From: Kiritimatiellia bacterium
Lineage (GTDB): Bacteria; Verrucomicrobiota; Kiritimatiellia; RFP12; UBA3636
Assembly (NCBI GenBank): GCA_017457625.1
Contig: JAFTHC010000072.1
Location: 1-47,695, forward strand
Direction: 5' to 3'
DNA: 47,695 nt
Position numbers and translations under genes: made by a program. The notes under the pieces were generated by a model. It made no database searches and was not told the origin of the DNA. It saw only the letters and a list, made by a program, of their open reading frames with translations. Of this stretch, positions 5,452 through 30,857 are shown one piece after another (position 1 is the first letter of the stretch; each line of letters starts with the position of its first letter).

Positions 5452-6168
5452 ATGAAAAACGCAATTCCCCTCGTCGTGGCCGTGTTGTTCGGCCTGGCCG
5501 CCGTGTTCGCGGTGAGCAACCGGCTTTCGAAAACGGAGCGGGCCGCCGCGTCCGGGACGGAGACGACGGCCGTCCTCGTCGCGCGGACCGACGTGCGCGC
5601 GGGCGAAGTCCTTTCGGACAAGAACCTCCGGACGCGCCGGATTCCCAGGGCTGCGTTCCGGGAAGGGCAGCACATGCGCGCGGAGGACCTCAATCTCGTG
5701 TCGGGGCAGCGCGTCCGCGCCGCCCTGTCGGACGGGGATTACCTTTTTGCCGGCGATCTGGCGCGCGCGGAAGGGACGGACGCCGGCGCCGCCGAACCGG
5801 GCAAATGGATCGTGCCGGTCCATTTCTCGGACTCGACGCTCCTGCGCGCCGGGCTGCTCGCCGCCGGCGACGAATTCGCCCTCGTGGCGCGCGGCGCGAT
5901 CCACCGGACGGTCCGCGGGACGGACGAGTCGGAGCCGGCCCGCGACGTTTCCGAGGACGGCATGTACGTGCTGTTCCCCTGCCTGCGCGTCCACCGGACC
6001 GCACCGGACGGAGCCTTCGTCTGCCTGCCGCCGGAGGAGGCCATGAGGCTCCAGCTCGCGCAGCTTTCGCTCGAACTCTACCCGATGCTCCGGATGCGCA
6101 ACGACCCGCGCAACGCGGACGCGGCGGCCCTTCCGCAGATCCGCGGCTCGCAACTCCGCGCGCGGTGA
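5452..6168 (+). CDS. cpaB: Flp pilus assembly protein CpaB/RcpC
   Basis: N-terminal TM IPLVVAVLFGLAAVFAV followed by a SAF-like segment VLVARTDVRAGEVLSDKNL. AAGGAG sits upstream. Position is immediately before the secretin. Confidence 0.85.
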   Translation: MKNAIPLVVAVLFGLAAVFAVSNRLSKTERAAASGTETTAVLVARTDVRAGEVLSDKNLRTRRIPRAAFREGQHMRAEDLNLVSGQRVRAALSDGDYLFAGDLARAEGTDAGAAEPGKWIVPVHFSDSTLLRAGLLAAGDEFALVARGAIHRTVRGTDESEPARDVSEDGMYVLFPCLRVHRTAPDGAFVCLPPEEAMRLQLAQLSLELYPMLRMRNDPRNADAAALPQIRGSQLRAR

Positions 6169-6223
6169 CGCGAGGTCCGTCTCCTTGTTTTCCCTTTTTC
6201 CCGATTCCACCTCCCAACGACCC

Positions 6224-27294: not shown

Positions 27295-28182
27295 ATGCAG
27301 TGGGGAGCCGCGAGCGACGTCGGCCGGCGCCGGCGGAACAACGAGGACGCGTGGGGCGCGTTCCCGGAGGCCGGCGCGTGGTGCGTGGCGGACGGCATGG
27401 GCGGCGCCGAAGGCGGAGAGACCGCTTCCCGGGCGGTCGTGTCGGAACTCGGCGCCGCGCTGCGCCGGTGGGGGGCGCTCGTCCCGCCCCTGTCCCTGCC
27501 GGACCGGGCCGAACTGTTCGCCCGGGCCGCGGACGCGGCTTCGGCCTGGATTTTCGACTGGGCCGCCCGCAACGGCGCGCCCGGCGCCGGAACGACGCTC
27601 GCGGCCGTTCTTCTCGACCCGGCCCGGCCGGGGCGCCCGCTTGCGCTCCACGCGGGCGACAGCCGCCTCTACCGGCTCCGGGGCCGCCGGCTTTCGCGGA
27701 TCACGGAGGACCACTCCGTGGCGGGGTTGGCCGGCGTCCGCGACGAATCGGAACTCCCGCCCGGCTTCCGGAATCTCGTCACGCGGGCCGTCGGCGTCCG
27801 GCCGCGCGTCGAACTGGAAAAGACGCCGTTCCGCCTCGCCCCGTCGGACCGGCTCCTGCTCTGCAGCGACGGGCTCTACCGGATGGTTTCCGACGGAGGA
27901 ATCGCGGAGGTTCTCCACGCCGCCGCGACGCCGGAGGAGGCCGCGGCGGCGCTCGTCGCCCGCGCGAACGACGCCGGCGGGGAGGACAACGTCACGGCTC
28001 TCGTCCTGTTCGCGCCGGAGCGCTTCGGCCGCCCGGCTTCCGTCCGCCCCCGTCTCGGCGCGGCCGGACTCGACGCTCTCGCCGCGGCCGCCGGGACGGA
28101 CGAGGACGAAACGGAGGACACGCGCCCGACGGCGCAAACGGAGCCGGCGGCGGCCGGCGCAACGGAAAGGAAAGGACCATGA
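27295..28182 (+). CDS. PP2C-family Ser/Thr phosphatase
   Basis: [54 protein letters not shown]. Starts 2 nt after the previous stop. Confidence 0.9.
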
Positions 28183-30857
28183 ACGGCAAGATCGGCGCGT
28201 TCCGGATCGAGGGAACGATTTCCGGCGGAGGCGGACAGGGGTCCGTGTTGCGCGCGCGGTGCGAAGAACCGTGCGGCATGGACGGAGTCGCCCCGGGCGA
28301 CGTCGTGGCGCTCAAGGCCGTGCCCGTCGCCGAACCGGACGCGGCGGCCCGGCTGGAGTCCCTGAAACGGCGCGTGGACCGGCTCGCGGGCGTCCGGCAT
28401 CCCGGCGTCGTGCGCCACTTCGGCTGTTTCGCGGCGGAAGGCGGCGTGGGACAGACCCTTCTGGTCACCATCATGGAACTGCTGGACGGCGACACGCTGG
28501 CGGCCCGGATCGGACGGGCTCCGGGCGGTCTCGACGCCGAAGAGGTCCTCCGCCTCTCGCGGTCCGCTCTCGGCGGACTCTCCGCCGCGGTCGCGGCCGG
28601 CGTTCTGCACCTCGACCTGAAACCGTCCAATCTCGTGTTGTGCCGCGACGGAAGGGCGACGTGGATCGATTTCGGGCTGGACGGCGACGCGACCGGCGAG
28701 GGCGTCCGGGGGTCGTTCGACTACATGGCCCCCGATTTTCTCGAGCGGCTGCGCCCGACGCCCGGCTTTTCCGGGGACGAGCGGTCCGACGTTTTCAGCT
28801 TCTGCGTCGCCGTCTACGAAGCGGCGACCGGGCGGACCCCCTACCGCCACCGGTCGCCGGGCGATTCCACGCAGGCCCGCGTCTCCTGGTATCGGCGCTG
28901 GAACGAAACGGACGCCGACGCGGCGGCTCGGCCGGACGGCGGCCCGCTGCTGGTGGAGGACTTCCGCCTCTGGCAGCTGGAAGGGCTGGCGCCCGTCCTT
29001 CGCAAGGGGCTTTCGCCCGACCGCGCCGGCCGATACGGCGGTTTCCGCGAACTCGAAGAGGCGTTTGCGGCCGTCCGGACCCGCCGGCTGGATGGCCGGC
29101 ACGATTCGTATCGGCTGTCGCATTGCGTCGGAAAAGGCGGTTTCGGGGCCGTGTTCAAGGCGATCCGCGAGTCCGACGGGCAGCCGGTGGCCGTGAAGTG
29201 CCGCCTCCGACCCGGCGGGGACGACCGTTTCGAGCGCGAAATCCGGGAACTCGGAAAGATCGACGATCCGCGCGTCGTCGGCCGCCTCGACGACGGACGG
29301 TCCGGCGACAGCCGTTTCCTCGTCATGCAGTTTCTGGACGGCATGCCCGGCTCGTCCCTGCGCGAACGGCTCCGCGAACCGTCCGCCCGTTTCGGACTCA
29401 TGACGGCGGAGGTCCTGCCTGCGTTCGAGCGCTACGCGAAAGGACTGGCGGCCCTCCACGCCGACAACGTCATCCACCGCGACCTGAAGCCCGCGAATCT
29501 CTACTTGCCGGCCGGCCGGCCCGGGGACGCCTGTATCATGGATCTCGGAATCGTGAGAACCGACGCGACCGCCACCGCGGACGGTCTGCCGCCCGGAACG
29601 CTGGACTACATGGCACCCGAGGTCGTCGAAGGGAACAGCCGCGGAGACGCGGCCTCGGACCTGTATTCCCTGGGACTGTGTCTCTACGAAGCCATCGTCG
29701 GGCAGCCGCTCTTTCCCCGGCTCCCTCCCGGGGAAAAGGGATGGGCCGAATTGTTCCGCCGGGTTTCCGCCAAACGGAATCCGGACCTCTCCCAGCTTTC
29801 CCGCATCCCCGGACTCGAGGCGCTGGTCCGGGACATGGTCGACCCGGATCCGGCCCGGCGTCCCGCCGGCGCGGAAGCGGTCGCGGCCAGGATCCGCGGC
29901 CTGTTGTCGAAACTGCCGAAACCGGCCGCGGAGGATGCGGCAACCGCGGAAACCCGGTTTACCGCGGAAACCCGGTTCGGGGAACCGGGCGACTTGCCGG
30001 AAGCGGCGCGGAAGAAACGAATCCGCATCGTTCCGCTCACGTTGGCGTTCGCCTTGGCGGCCGCAATCGCCGTTTTGGCCCTGCTTCCCGGACCGGAACC
30101 CGCGACGCCGCCGGAATCCGCGTCCGTGCCGGCGCCGACCGAGGTGCCTGCATCCGCGCCCGCACCCGCGCCGGAACCCGCACCCGCGCCGGAACCCGCA
30201 CCCGCGCCGGAACCCACGCCCGCGCCGGAACCCACGCCCGCGCCGGAGCCCACGCCCGCGCCGGAGCCCGCACCCGTGCCGGAACCCGCACCCGCGCCGG
30301 AGCCCGAGCCTGTCCCCGCGCCGGAGCCCGAGCCTATCCCCACGCCGGAGCCCGAGCCTGTCCCCGTGCCGGAGCCCGCGCCCGTGCCGGAGCCCGAGTC
30401 TGTCCCCGCGCCGGAGCCCGAGCCTGTCCCCGCGCCGGAGCCCGAGCCCACGCCGGAGCCCGCGTCGGAGCTCGAGCCCGCCTCCGCGCCGTCCAAACTG
30501 GACTTCTCGAACCTTCTCGTCGCCCCCATCCAGAAGCCAAACGAACTGCCCGCGCCGGAGCCGCCGGCCGCCGTCGAGACGGCGACGGTCCGTTTCCACA
30601 ACGCGAACCGGTTGCACGAAGCCCATGTCACGGCGGTAGCTCGCCCGGGGTGGCGGCAAACCGTTCCGCCGGGCGGAACCGTGTCCGCGACCGAGCCCCT
30701 TTCCTTCTGGCGCGGAACCCGGTTCCGTGCGGAGTTGTCGGGAAATCCAAACTACAATCCGATCCAATTCGACGTGAAAATCGCGGATCCGTCCGGCGTG
30801 AACGTCGTTCCGCTCCGGTTCGAATACCGGCCGAGGACGCGAACCATTTCGCCGTGA
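28179..30857 (+). CDS. membrane Ser/Thr protein kinase with two tandem kinase domains, Pro-rich linker and extracytoplasmic C-terminal domain
   Basis: Domain 1: [22 protein letters not shown] (HLD at 28608-28616), IDFGL, YMAPD. Domain 2: [21 protein letters not shown] (HRD at 29475-29483), MDLGI, YMAPE. TM: [20 protein letters not shown]. Followed by (PAPEPx)n and a ~125 aa tail. ATGA overlap with the PP2C gene. Confidence 0.9.
30156..30462 (+). repeat. in-frame 18-nt and 24-nt tandem repeats encoding PAPEP(A/T) and PAPEPEP(V/I) units
   Basis: gcgccggaacccgcaccc reiterated with point variants, then gcgccggagcccgagcctgtcccc-type units. The repeat is coding, within the kinase extracytoplasmic linker. 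Confidence 0.9.

Follow-up and report, generated by a model that had tools for sequence, protein, structure and literature searches.

A Tad (type IVc) pilus variant of Kiritimatiellia and Lentisphaeria with a putative phospho-switch and a second motor ATPase

The window analysed here is a 47,695-nt stretch of a Kiritimatiellia bacterium contig (JAFTHC010000072.1), in which codon-position GC plots and ORF analysis define 21 + strand genes between positions 5452 and 30857 (Table 1). The models of g1 to g12 match independent gene calls in the contig's public record, and those of g13 to g21, except g17, match independent calls in a contig that is ∼95% identical. The 21 co-directional genes of the original prediction were recovered, as were its eight 4-nt overlaps, at exactly the same positions (12810, 15215, 16330, 16941, 20629, 22689, 23898 and 28179). 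The widest intergenic gap measures 52 nt (15398–15449) and not 55 nt, a difference that lies within start-codon ambiguity. While the run is indeed co-directional, it does not begin at 5452, as six + strand lipoprotein genes (1014–5436) precede g1 at a spacing of 15 nt. A GH2 glycosidase gene comes after the cluster, and a separate block of GspF and pseudopilin genes occupies 39629–43709 of the window.

Table 1. Coordinates, assignments and profile matches of the cluster genes and of the indel segment.
Feature	Coordinates	Strand	Assignment	Match
g1	5452–6168	+	CpaB/RcpC-type periplasmic protein	Pfam SAF 2.4e-8
g2	6185–7831	+	Outer-membrane secretin, RcpA/CpaC-like	Pfam Secretin, 19 bits only
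g3	7849–9540	+	Motor ATPase, N-terminal FHA + CpaF/TadA	FHA 4.5e-15; T2SSE 1.4e-64
g4	9554–10408	+	Inner-membrane platform, TadB/CpaG-like	T2SSF 2.1e-14
g5	10410–11309	+	Inner-membrane platform, TadC/CpaH-like	T2SSF 4.8e-14
g6	11329–12813	+	FHA protein, one predicted transmembrane segment, large C-terminal part read as periplasmic	FHA 2.7e-7
g7	12810–15218	+	Two FHA domains, YscD/PrgH-cytoplasmic-like	FHA 1e-29 in two stretches
g8	15215–15397	+	Flp-like small pilin, 60 aa	No Pfam match
g9	15450–15782	+	Flp-type pilin, G/QAMMEY	Flp_Fap 17 bits, under cut-off
g10	15797–16333	+	TadV/CpaA-type prepilin peptidase, 178 aa	Peptidase_A24 2.7e-15, sole domain
g11	16330–16944	+	TadE-like minor pilin	TadE 1.8e-6
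g12	16941–19574	+	Large TadG-like minor pilin, 877 aa, candidate tip protein	
g13	19592–20632	+	Sec-signal protein, unknown family; Kiritimatiellia-type loci only	No Pfam or NCBIfam match
g14	20629–22692	+	Sec-signal protein, class-3 lipase module (Mbeg1-like/Lipase_3)	Mbeg1-like 1.3e-10
g15	22689–23423	+	Second TadE/TadF-like minor pilin	N-terminal motif matches g11, E 3e-6
g16	23428–23901	+	Small Sec-signal protein, unknown family	No Pfam or NCBIfam match
g17	23898–25139	+	Radical SAM/SPASM peptide-maturase-like enzyme	Radical_SAM 2e-17
g18	25156–26220	+	Second ATPase, CpaF paralogue, NTD and ATPase domain only	T2SSE 2.5e-53
g19	26234–27292	+	Sec-signal protein, helical N-terminal part, conserved C-terminal beta-sandwich	
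g20	27295–28182	+	PP2C-type Ser/Thr phosphatase	PP2C_2 3.4e-11
g21	28179–30857	+	Membrane Hanks-type kinase, two kinase domains	Pkinase 4.2e-55 in two stretches
Indel segment	23766–25081		1316 nt: almost the whole of g17 plus the 3′ end of g16	

Judged by domain content, the cluster encodes a complete Tad (type IVc) core comprising CpaB, a secretin, CpaF, two platform proteins, Flp pilins, an A24 peptidase and TadE/F/G-like minor pilins. Its interleaving with FHA, PP2C, kinase and second-ATPase genes had been proposed beforehand and is supported by a Pfam profile search, which reproduced all the earlier domain calls. The g1 product, which scores 60.5 bits against NCBIfam pilus_cpaB (under the cut-off of 71), has orthologues in related loci, and a profile of six g2 orthologues matches phage pIV (1.7e-11), MxiD, PilQ, GspD and RcpA (2e-6) in the PDB. 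Residues 206–546 of g3 align with residues 143–482 of Caulobacter crescentus CpaF (E 1e-121), and its FHA+T2SSE architecture recurs in more than 100 homologues of 57–63% identity, several from named Kiritimatiellae. Thirteen g8 orthologues, always directly after g7, share xVLLEY and a C-terminal YQR...SLPxP motif. The Flp motif G/xxxxEY of g9 is conserved in its orthologues: 39 related-locus ORFs keep an xVMMEY hydrophobic helix, with G-x4-E-Y in 18 of them. For g12, the Pfam Tad N-terminal motif falls just below the cut-off (4.5e-4, 20.9 bits), and orthologues of 520–940 aa are found at the equivalent position in related loci; TadG/KilN proteins form the pilus tips in published models (PMC12075869). 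Conserved in related loci, the g15 gene follows either the TadG-like gene or the slot gene, and its orthologue in L091 gives a weak TadE match. The absence of TadZ/CpaE noted earlier is borne out, since neither a Pfam match nor a deviant Walker A was found in any frame of the window.

Four FHA domains are distributed over three proteins, one each in g3 and g6 and two in g7. Their pThr-binding positions, as read from the sequences, are non-canonical in several domains and fully canonical only in FHA1 of g7. The topologies of g6 and g7 were likewise read from translations; g7, which also matches Yop-YscD_cpl (7.5e-16), has one hydrophobic segment and an Ala-rich C-terminal part read as periplasmic. 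In related loci, g6 orthologues adjoin the platform genes, and in many of them g20 orthologues adjoin g18. In the kinase g21, a single hydrophobic segment and a (PxEP)n linker accompany a C-terminal part that reads as extracytoplasmic; its translation shows the catalytic Lys, Asp and DFG/DLG, and a tandem array lies at 30154–30491.

The second ATPase is a shortened relative of the first. Residues 8–351 of g18 correspond to residues 145–490 of the 501 of CpaF, so that the disordered region is missing, as is the three-helix bundle, because everything N-terminal of the CpaF NTD is lacking. In PMC12019362, this bundle is counted among the elements of the minimal CpaF architecture. Members of the g18 clade retain the Walker A sequence GxTSSGKTS as well as the catalytic Glu box. 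The PVC g18 clade has 94% bootstrap support, and all short ATPases together form a separate clade (100/100).

A search with g18 against contigs of one genome per species retrieved 57 orthologous loci (57–88% identity), titled Kiritimatiellae, Lentisphaeria, Victivallales or ‘Verrucomicrobia’ MAGs. Many carriers are gut and sediment bacteria of the Kiritimatiellia/Lentisphaeria. Gene maps were drawn with phmmer from the 21 proteins against six-frame ORFs, and 28 loci were well flanked, with at least 8 kb on each side of g18. Tad structural genes lie beside g18 in 27 of these 28, a g3-type ATPase in 18, the FHA-transmembrane proteins g6 and/or g7 in 19 and the kinase in 19; PP2C was detected in only 11, while a Hanks kinase and/or PP2C is found in 23. 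Usually g18 directly adjoins one or both of these genes. The check for co-occurrence in related genomes was thus positive for FHA proteins, PP2C, kinase and second ATPase, which are therefore conserved parts of one Tad variant. By gene content, the variant is spread over Kiritimatiellia, Lentisphaeria and Victivallales, with five extras fixed alongside the core: the FHA domain on g3, the g6 and g7 pair, the kinase g21, the PP2C g20 and g18.

The radical SAM enzyme, proposed as a further component, does not belong to this set. Its translation contains CNLRCSYC and a C-x2-C-x5-C-x3-C SPASM-type cluster, and it scores best against rSAM/SPASM peptide maturases, always under their cut-offs (the best NCBIfam, the PapB ranthipeptide maturase, reaches 172 bits against 340). 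The gene is missing from 57 of 57 related species loci. Compared by blastn with the ∼95% identical contig L089, the window is 94.7% identical up to 23765 and 86% from 25082, and the intervening indel segment has 138 nt as its counterpart in L089. A 159-nt remnant of g17, 89% identical, follows a g16-like gene in L092. The radical SAM gene, inserted sporadically, is no part of the machine.

The lipase module of g14 (about aa 45–290, with GHSLGG at 194–199) precedes an all-helical C-terminal part of ∼400 aa. The AF2 model has a pLDDT of mostly 80–90 over the hydrolase part, and G194, S196 and D255 are invariant. By sequence, the best PDB entry is 7ubz, a T6SS lipase effector (1.4e-4); by structure, Foldseek ranks feruloyl esterase A, Lip2 and MDLA highest (from E 8e-7). 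The protein carries a Sec signal and not a prepilin leader, and its gene lies downstream of the TadG-like gene and upstream of the TadF-like gene, with 4-nt overlaps, an arrangement that recurs in L003, L004, L089, L091, L092 and L124 and, in part, in L102 and L141. The module was found in about nine lineages, and the lipase and g13 hold this position between lineages with lipases of only 31–45% identity. In sister loci, helical signal-peptide proteins without a hydrolase domain occupy the position of g14, which is why the position itself can be called conserved. Among related Tad loci, the lipase is limited to a Kiritimatiellia sub-lineage and is lacking in most, so the proposal of a general machine cargo does not hold. 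One T6SS locus carries the same module as a PAAR::lipase, flanked by VgrG and ankyrin genes, and a TPS-domain exoprotein has it at its C-terminus; of 80 metagenome loci that contain the lipase core, none was matched by T6SS marker queries.

The g13 gene follows the TadG-like gene in L003, L004, L006, L007, L011, L018, L019, L037, L089 and L124, in loci with or without a lipase domain, and g16 has orthologues in L004, L007, L014, L015, L021, L045, L088, L089, L091 and L092. In g19, the region of aa 225–352 is modelled by AF2 with pLDDT >90, and Foldseek returns only generic Ig/FN3 folds. This gene is present in five of five lipase loci with downstream genes covered (window, L003, L004, L089, L091) and in none of eight fully covered lipase-less loci, counts that do not represent independent events because the lipase-bearing loci may be one clade. 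It is a possible candidate for a lipase partner or immunity protein. A possible effector role of the lipase has indirect support in its place in the minor-pilin block, in the PAAR- and TPS-borne modules and in co-inheritance with g19.

The reading that we favour, with a probability of about 0.6, is that of a type IVc (Tad) pilus machine in a distinct PVC variant, phospho-switched and equipped with a second motor, in which the lipase at the tip block and g19 are accessory and the radical SAM enzyme is sporadic. It is also conceivable, albeit unlikely, that the cluster specifies an ordinary Tad pilus for adhesion or surface sensing that has gained additional regulation, with the lipase, g13, g16, g19 and radical SAM enzyme as passengers and the lipase serving a polysaccharide-degrading bacterium as a nutritional esterase. 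At most a minority of related loci has any one of these genes, the radical SAM gene being a strain-level indel; the four secreted proteins have plain Sec signals, the GH2 gene stands after the cluster, and a nutritional esterase is possible because fungal feruloyl esterases and lipases are the closest structural matches of g14. Against this reading, the lipase and g13 are lodged between minor-pilin genes with 4-nt overlaps, at a position kept across lineages by divergent lipases and by hydrolase-less proteins alike, and PAAR and TPS delivery domains carry the same lipase module elsewhere. A T2SS-like pseudopilus that pushes Sec-exported g13, g14, g16 and g19 through the secretin, with the short ATPase resetting the piston, is improbable. 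Four Sec-signal proteins are encoded within the cluster, Tad, T2SS and T4P are members of a single superfamily (PMC6711533), and a T2SS-like function was also raised by the authors of the Kil study (PMC8460266). However, the conserved core of the variant does without these four proteins, and therefore their secretion cannot be the ancestral function; moreover, Flp pilins with a TadE/F/G set characterise Tad systems that form fibres, and the window contains a separate GspF and pseudopilin block.

In architecture, the closest described system is Kil of Myxococcus, an FHA-rich Tad derivative without TadZ, TadD and RcpB (PMC8460266). The locus resembles it in these three absences, in its FHA-fused motor and in its several FHA proteins, including a PrgH/YscD-like one. 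FHA-fused CpaF is itself a described architecture, class III (PMC12019362), and the original label of a candidate new system was thus overstated, while its phospho-regulatory and two-ATPase parts proved to be conserved. The likeness to Kil, together with a secretion-effector-type lipase module in the tip gene block, would fit membership of the Kil family, the Tad-like machines with which Myxococcus, Bdellovibrio and Bradymonas kill on contact, with the lipase as the type of toxin still sought for Kil (PMC8460266). There is little probability in this reading, as Kil has a single ATPase and the gene lists of its clusters contain neither kinase nor PP2C, whereas the locus has two ATPases, a kinase and a PP2C. 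In a motor tree that included KilF sequences from the published alignment of the Kil paper (PMC8460266), the PVC motors come out as a separate clade (100%), with 0/100 bootstraps joining them to the five predator Kil motors. The g3 motor is equally identical to KilF and Caulobacter CpaF (60% each) and closer to a Burkholderia gladioli motor (66%), and most related loci have no lipase. Kiritimatiellia and Lentisphaeria are not known to show predatory behaviour.

For the phospho-switched pilus machine that we favour, the logic of the switch is inferred from synteny and by analogy with the threonine-phosphorylation pathway of the Pseudomonas H1-T6SS and with Kil. The receptor-type kinase g21 would convert an envelope or contact cue into threonine phosphorylation of machine components. 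These marks would be read by the FHA domains of the motor g3 and of the g6/g7 inner-membrane scaffold, leading to motor docking and the onset of pilus assembly, and the PP2C g20 would reset the switch. The short ATPase g18 may act as a second motor at the same platform as the long one, and its most likely role, on the model of PilB and PilT, would be in disassembly or in antagonising the long motor. The retraction orientation reportedly depends on the counterpart of CpaF R387 (preprint 10.64898/2026.02.24.707734); the analogy-based case for retraction by g18 is weak because this position is L/I/V in the g18 clade, while P-R-D is retained in 17 of 25 g3-clade sequences. The tip gene block encodes a fast-evolving secreted helical protein, endowed in this bacterium with an acquired class-3 lipase module that may act at or near the interface between pilus and target.

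Because the high G+C content of the window (about 70%) gives long ORFs in every frame, reading frames were assigned from a codon-position GC plot, and start codons were picked afterwards. Together with ORF analysis, this plot returned the 21 predicted genes on the forward strand (g1 to g21), with the eight 4-nt overlaps at exactly the positions predicted and a widest intergenic gap of 52 nt in our own gene model. For g1 to g12 the model matches the public gene calls of the ENA metagenome contig (65.5 kb) to which the window belongs, and for g13 to g21, g17 excepted, those of a contig about 95% identical to the window (L089). 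All the domains named in the original prediction were recovered by Pfam. The array had been placed to start at 5452; it does not start there, since six further co-directional lipoprotein genes lie directly upstream and stop 15 nt before g1. Their products include DUF1425/YcfL-like and LpoB-like proteins, and their G+C content (0.58-0.65) is below that of the cluster. As substitutes for TadD/RcpB they were considered and dropped, having no linkage to the system elsewhere except in near-identical contigs. At the opposite border, a convergent gene for a GH2-family glycosidase lies 46 nt past the g21 stop, in DNA with a local G+C content of 0.78-0.80. Scans for promoter and terminator consensus sequences at both cluster borders scored at or below shuffle expectation and are uninformative on operon limits. 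An Rfam scan of the window detected neither riboswitches nor other RNAs within the cluster, the only matches being two tRNAs at 34.5 kb, encoded by adjacent Met-CAT and Arg-ACG genes. Also outside the cluster is a separate block resembling type II secretion or type IV pilus loci, in which three or more N_methyl prepilin-like genes (250-335 aa) come after a two-domain GspF/PilC-type platform gene.

Coordinates of the features discussed, in the window and in related loci or contigs compared with it (L numbers)
Sequence	Position	Strand	Feature
Window	1014-5436	+	Six lipoprotein genes upstream of g1
Window	5452-30857	+	Tad cluster, g1 to g21
Window	23766-25081		Radical SAM indel relative to L089 and L090
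Window	23901-24059		Part of g17 matching the L092 remnant
Window	30154-30491		Tandem array within g21
Window	30904-33066	-	Glycosidase gene downstream of g21
Window	34535-34693	-	tRNA genes downstream of the cluster
Window	39629-43709	+	Type II secretion/type IV pilus-like block
L015	416-21053		Tandem Tad-like gene sets
L065	9247-11056		Orphan short ATPase
L086/L087	1-10202		T6SS locus with PAAR::lipase
L092	3674-3832		Remnant of the g17 5' end
L110	15-9674		Lipase core in surface proteins
L166	5842-9657		Lipase core in a TPS exoprotein

Both motor candidates belong to the CpaF/TadA family of ATPases: each carries a T2SSE domain (Pfam), and g3 and g18 match the CpaF of C. crescentus with E values of 1e-121 and 3e-87. 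The platform is encoded as two separate proteins, g4 and g5, with a single T2SSF domain each (Pfam). The CpaB-like g1 has a SAF match and reaches 60.5 bits with pilus_cpaB, below the cut-off of 71. The secretin g2 scores only 19 bits in Pfam, and a profile built from six orthologues retrieves pIV (1.7e-11) and RcpA (2e-6) from the PDB. Two small pilins, g8 and g9, have Flp-type motifs that are kept in their orthologues; g9 contains G-QAMMEY and matches Flp_Fap weakly (17 bits), and its type of helix is common to 39 related-locus ORFs, with G-x4-E-Y in 18 of the 39. The prepilin peptidase g10 (178 aa) is of the TadV/CpaA type, consisting of Peptidase_A24 alone without a methyltransferase domain, and GAGDVK and an N-terminal Asp can be read in its translation. 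Among the minor pilins, g11 has a TadE match and shares its N-terminal TadE-type motif with g15, while the Tad N-terminal motif of g12 is slightly under its cut-off at 20.9 bits. The predicted lack of a ParA-like TadZ/CpaE holds within the window: no Pfam match occurs among the 21 products or the flanking ORFs, and KGGxGK[ST] is absent from every frame.

Conservation was followed with the short ATPase g18 as the anchor in a one-genome-per-species collection, which yielded 57 orthologous loci at 57-88% identity. These come from MAGs of rumen, gut, sediment and water that are titled Kiritimatiellae, Lentisphaeria, Victivallales or 'Verrucomicrobia'; matches below 53% identity are generic CpaFs of other phyla. 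The nearest relatives of g18 occur in the Kiritimatiellae MAG GCA_017476965.1 (90.7%) and then in a 'Verrucomicrobia'-titled MAG (88%). The FHA-fused motor g3 has more than 100 homologues of identical architecture at 57-63% identity, the named ones being from Kiritimatiellae MAGs. By these relatives of g18 and g3, the window is assigned to a Kiritimatiellia bacterium. When the 21 window proteins were mapped by phmmer onto six-frame ORFs of the related loci, two layouts emerged, one colinear and one a divergent two-operon arrangement (Victivallales), built from identical parts. Both comprise CpaB, the secretin, the FHA-CpaF, two platform proteins, membrane proteins with one and two FHA domains, the 60-aa g8, Flp pilins, the A24 peptidase and TadE-, TadG- and TadF-like proteins, as well as the short ATPase with an adjoining kinase and often PP2C too.

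Co-occurrence was counted in the 28 loci flanked by 8 kb or more on each side, for features within 10 kb of the g18 orthologue. The resulting counts, which are lower bounds given the 10-kb flanks and the difficulty of detecting fast-evolving proteins, are 27/28 for Tad structural genes, 19/28 for the FHA-transmembrane proteins g6/g7, 19/28 for the kinase, 11/28 for PP2C and 23/28 for kinase or PP2C, compared with none of the 28 for g19 or for the radical SAM gene. Presence of the accessory genes beside Tad cores in relatives, on which the original prediction could have foundered, thus speaks in favour of the FHA proteins, the kinase, PP2C and the second ATPase. In a Victivallaceae MAG (L015), two Tad-like gene sets stand in tandem, the second CpaB-secretin-FHA start coming after the kinase of the first set. 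Three loci (L043, L047 and L049) encode three CpaF-like ATPases each, namely the FHA-CpaF, the short form of g18 type and a divergent third; one of the three loci bears the title Acidobacteriota (Sulfotelmatobacter), possibly as a result of mis-binning.

The two motors are distinguished by their N-terminal regions. In g3, 205 residues precede the CpaF NTD, corresponding to an FHA domain and space for a linker and a three-helix bundle. Only seven residues precede the NTD of g18, which aligns to CpaF 145-490 of 501 and is therefore without the disordered region and the three-helix bundle. This bundle is described as belonging to the minimal CpaF architecture and as a contact to the platform (PMC12019362). 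The Walker A motif, the catalytic Glu box and the His box are kept across the whole g18 clade, and g18 is probably an active ATPase. Phylogeny was examined in a neighbour-joining tree of the ATPases (297 columns, 100 bootstraps) to which KilF and CpaF sequences were added from the published supermatrix of the paper on Kil, the Tad-like prey-killing apparatus of Myxococcus xanthus. The g18 proteins of the PVC group form a clade (94% bootstrap) nested in a 100%-bootstrap clade of short ATPases from other phyla. To this larger clade also belongs an orphan short CpaF-like ATPase of an Oligoflexia MAG (L065), which adjoins an N_methyl minor pilin amid housekeeping genes. A recent duplication of g3 was rejected as the source of g18, the two being 49% identical and g18 belonging to a clade that is separate and deep. 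For the g3 proteins of the PVC group, the tree gives a distinct clade (100%) among FHA-type and Kil-inclusive motors, within a broad group shared with beta- and gamma-proteobacterial motors.

An FHA-CpaF alone is not new, as it is the published class III architecture (FHA-IDR-3HB-NTD-CAD; e.g. Achromobacter xylosoxidans), which has the same domain order as g3 and is mostly betaproteobacterial (PMC12019362). Unlike in published class III examples, the architecture is here fixed in a PVC lineage alongside a kinase, PP2C and additional FHA proteins, which could provide its input. What can be stated with confidence is that g18 is a conserved second ATPase adjoining the kinase, in a family viewed as single-motor (PMC12019362; 10.64898/2026.07.08.737194). 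A comparison with PilB and PilT of type IVa pili suggests itself: there, too, two paralogous hexameric ATPases serve one platform, and one of them is without the N-terminal domain(s) of the other. By this likeness g18 would be a disassembly motor, a role that the sequence data fit imperfectly. Unlike PilT, g18 is of the CpaF family, scoring 51.6 bits against a pilT_fam cut-off of 319, and it is without the Arg characteristic of CpaF's retraction face. This residue, R387, is reportedly required for the retraction orientation (preprint 10.64898/2026.02.24.707734); its equivalent is Arg in 17 of 25 g3-clade sequences and L/I/V in the g18 clade, which leaves disassembly as no more than a possible role of g18.

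Components of a putative phosphothreonine circuit accompany the motors. The product of g21 has two kinase domains in which the catalytic Lys, the Asp and DFG/DLG are retained, followed by a hydrophobic segment, a (P-x-E-P)n linker and a C-terminal part, and is read as a receptor-type kinase. The linker is encoded by a tandem array with periods of 18 to 90 nt. Metal-binding motifs of PP2C can be read in the translation of g20, and g3, g6 and g7 together contain four FHA domains. In g6 and g7, a cytoplasmic FHA part, one hydrophobic segment and a large C-terminal part reproduce the layout of PrgH/YscD-type ring proteins (Yop-YscD_cpl matches). A Hanks kinase (g21), PP2C (g20) and FHA domains (g3/g6/g7) are encoded and conserved with the machine. 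From this conserved parts list and the precedent of the Pseudomonas aeruginosa H1-T6SS (PpkA, PppA, Fha1), we infer a gating model in which the kinase would write pThr, the FHA domains of motor and scaffold would read it and PP2C would erase it. The same precedent was invoked by the Kil authors (PMC8460266). The likeness lies in a membrane Hanks kinase, PP2C and FHA proteins inside the locus of a secretion or fibre machine; the T6SS is a different machine, so that the analogy concerns regulatory logic only and does not imply homologous targets. Unlike in the H1-T6SS, the motor itself and two membrane proteins here carry fused FHA domains.

Two further genes had been assigned to the system, and neither has the same standing. 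The radical SAM gene g17 is absent from 57/57 related species loci and fails as a system part. Its product has the CX3CX2C and SPASM cysteines, but every family match is under its cut-off, the top one being the ranthipeptide maturase PapB (172 bits against 340), and its closest families are peptide maturases. Kiritimatiellia are rich in sulfatases; anaerobic sulfatase maturase was nevertheless rejected as the best label, with 92 bits against 172 for the PapB type. No Cys-rich small ORF was found as a precursor, and g16 has one C-x3-D. In L089 and L090 the neighbouring genes are 94-96% identical in protein, yet g18 directly follows g16 and the corresponding stretch is reduced to 138 nt. Nothing convincing in the way of target-site duplications or inverted repeats was seen around this indel. 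In L092, a distant relative with a lipase 38% identical and adjoining genes 31-38% identical in protein, a 159-nt remnant of the g17 5' end with 89% DNA identity lies 3' of a g16-like gene, which points to a recent transfer of the radical SAM segment between lineages or to an assembly chimera. The absence from 57 loci, the indel and the remnant indicate that g17 is a sporadic, probably mobile accessory of this spot.

The lipase g14, originally proposed as the cargo of the apparatus, largely fails as a general one: near g18 orthologues it was seen in 1/28 loci, as its C-terminal part only. Its product has a Sec signal, and in the predicted structure a class-3 lipase domain is modelled well, ahead of an all-helical C-terminal half of low confidence. 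With GHSLGG present and G194, S196 and D255 invariant, the protein conforms to the Ser-Asp-His class 3 type, the His not being located. Its best Foldseek matches are feruloyl esterase A, Lip2 and MDLA, its top PDB sequence match is a T6SS lipase effector of Enterobacter (7ubz, 1.4e-4), and a search of 5.8 billion proteins found just eight homologues. The order TadG-like, g13, lipase, TadF-like recurs in L003, L004, L089, L091, L092 and L124, and partially in L102 and L141. In sister Kiritimatiellia-type loci, the same position is occupied by helical-repeat proteins of 600-1160 aa with signal peptides and no hydrolase domain, which makes a secreted helical protein, itself variable, the conserved element of the tip gene block. 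The slot protein of L019 still matches the C-terminal part of g14, and the lipase is an N-terminal addition to the slot protein in one sub-lineage.

The lipase core also occurs on other carriers. In the T6SS locus L086/L087, with the order ClpV, VgrG, PAAR::lipase (P0007), ankyrin-repeat gene, FHA/DUF4123 protein and TssK, the lipase module of PAAR::lipase (L086) is 34% identical to that of g14. The core stands at the C-terminus of a two-partner secretion (TPS) exoprotein in L166 and inside Ig/cadherin surface proteins of more than 3000 aa in L110. Its presence on PAAR, TPS and Ig/cadherin carriers is the behaviour of a portable effector module. No T6SS markers were detected with L086 query sequences in 80 metagenome loci that carry the lipase core, and the T6SS link therefore rests on L086/L087 and 7ubz. 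With these effectors (7ubz, PAAR::lipase and TPS::lipase) g14 shares a Lipase_3/Mbeg1-like alpha/beta-hydrolase, a GxSxG elbow and a fused carrier part; unlike theirs, its carrier is a helical protein exported via Sec, with its gene amid those for Tad minor pilins, and is without PAAR, VgrG or TPS domain. The Sec-signal protein g19 is present in 5/5 lipase loci with downstream sequence and in 0/8 fully covered lipase-less loci, loci that are not independent of each other. Its homologues include many lipoproteins of about 200 aa, and its predicted fold is a generic beta-sandwich that, in a search of the PDB for an immunity-protein match, retrieved only generic Ig/FN3 matches. A role as partner or immunity protein of the lipase is possible.

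Set against canonical Tad/Cpa loci (Aggregatibacter tad, Caulobacter cpa), the cluster has CpaB/RcpC, RcpA/CpaC, TadA/CpaF, TadB, TadC, Flp, TadV/CpaA and TadE/F/G in common with them, and differs in being without TadZ/CpaE, TadD and RcpB, in the FHA domain of its motor, in two added FHA-transmembrane proteins and in its second ATPase. By architecture, the nearest described system is Kil (PMC8460266, PMC12075869). Both have an FHA-fused CpaF motor, several more FHA proteins of which one is PrgH/YscD-like, CpaB, a secretin, two platform proteins, an A24 peptidase, Flp pilins and TadE/F/G-like minor pilins, and TadZ, TadD and RcpB are listed in neither. Kil consists of two clusters and needs a needleless T3SS (PMC8460266, PMC12075869); no T3SS genes were seen in the window. 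Unlike Kil, which has one ATPase and for which neither kinase nor PP2C genes are listed, the present system is a single array that includes a Hanks kinase, PP2C and a second, short ATPase that is conserved; its two CpaF paralogues, g3 and g18, also co-occur in related loci. A grouping with the core proteins of Myxococcales, Bdellovibrionales and Bradymonadales, as expected of a Kil system, is not borne out: in the neighbour-joining tree, which for Kil compares trimmed blocks of the ATPase only by a distance method, the PVC g3 clade and the five predator Kil motors grouped in 0/100 bootstraps. The hosts also belong to different phyla, Kil being from Myxococcus xanthus and the present cluster from Kiritimatiellia. 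Kiritimatiellia are not known as predators. It is conceivable, but in our estimate unlikely, that the cluster encodes a two-motor, pThr-gated Tad pilus of Kiritimatiellia from animal guts and sediments whose tip block carries a lipase-armed, membrane-active helical protein with g19 as its immunity protein; such a pilus would attack membranes in a contact-dependent way and would be independent of Kil in origin, its hosts lying outside the known predatory lineages.

A literature search of limited reach found no published Tad system of Kiritimatiellia or Lentisphaeria and no Tad locus with a conserved short second ATPase. The main value of the cluster lies in this conserved two-ATPase, phospho-signalling variant of Tad. 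How a single CpaF performs both extension and retraction is an active research question, and a Tad clade with a long FHA-CpaF beside a short CpaF devoid of the three-helix bundle, together with a kinase and a phosphatase, is a natural experiment on how motors specialize and how pilus assembly may be gated post-translationally. For the FHA-rich arrangement of Tad genes published for predatory deltaproteobacteria (Kil), a counterpart exists in a range of PVC bacteria commonly met in metagenomes of gut and rumen. The lipase-armed protein of the tip block comes second in value, as a testable candidate payload: the Kil toxin is not yet identified (PMC8460266), and the lipase sub-lineage is therefore a concrete candidate for the gain of an enzymatic payload by a Tad tip block. 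If the lipase-armed reading were true, the cluster would supply the first enzymatic payload identifiable for any Tad-type machine, and also the first case in which a long and a short CpaF divide the labour between extension and a second task, either retraction or payload handling.
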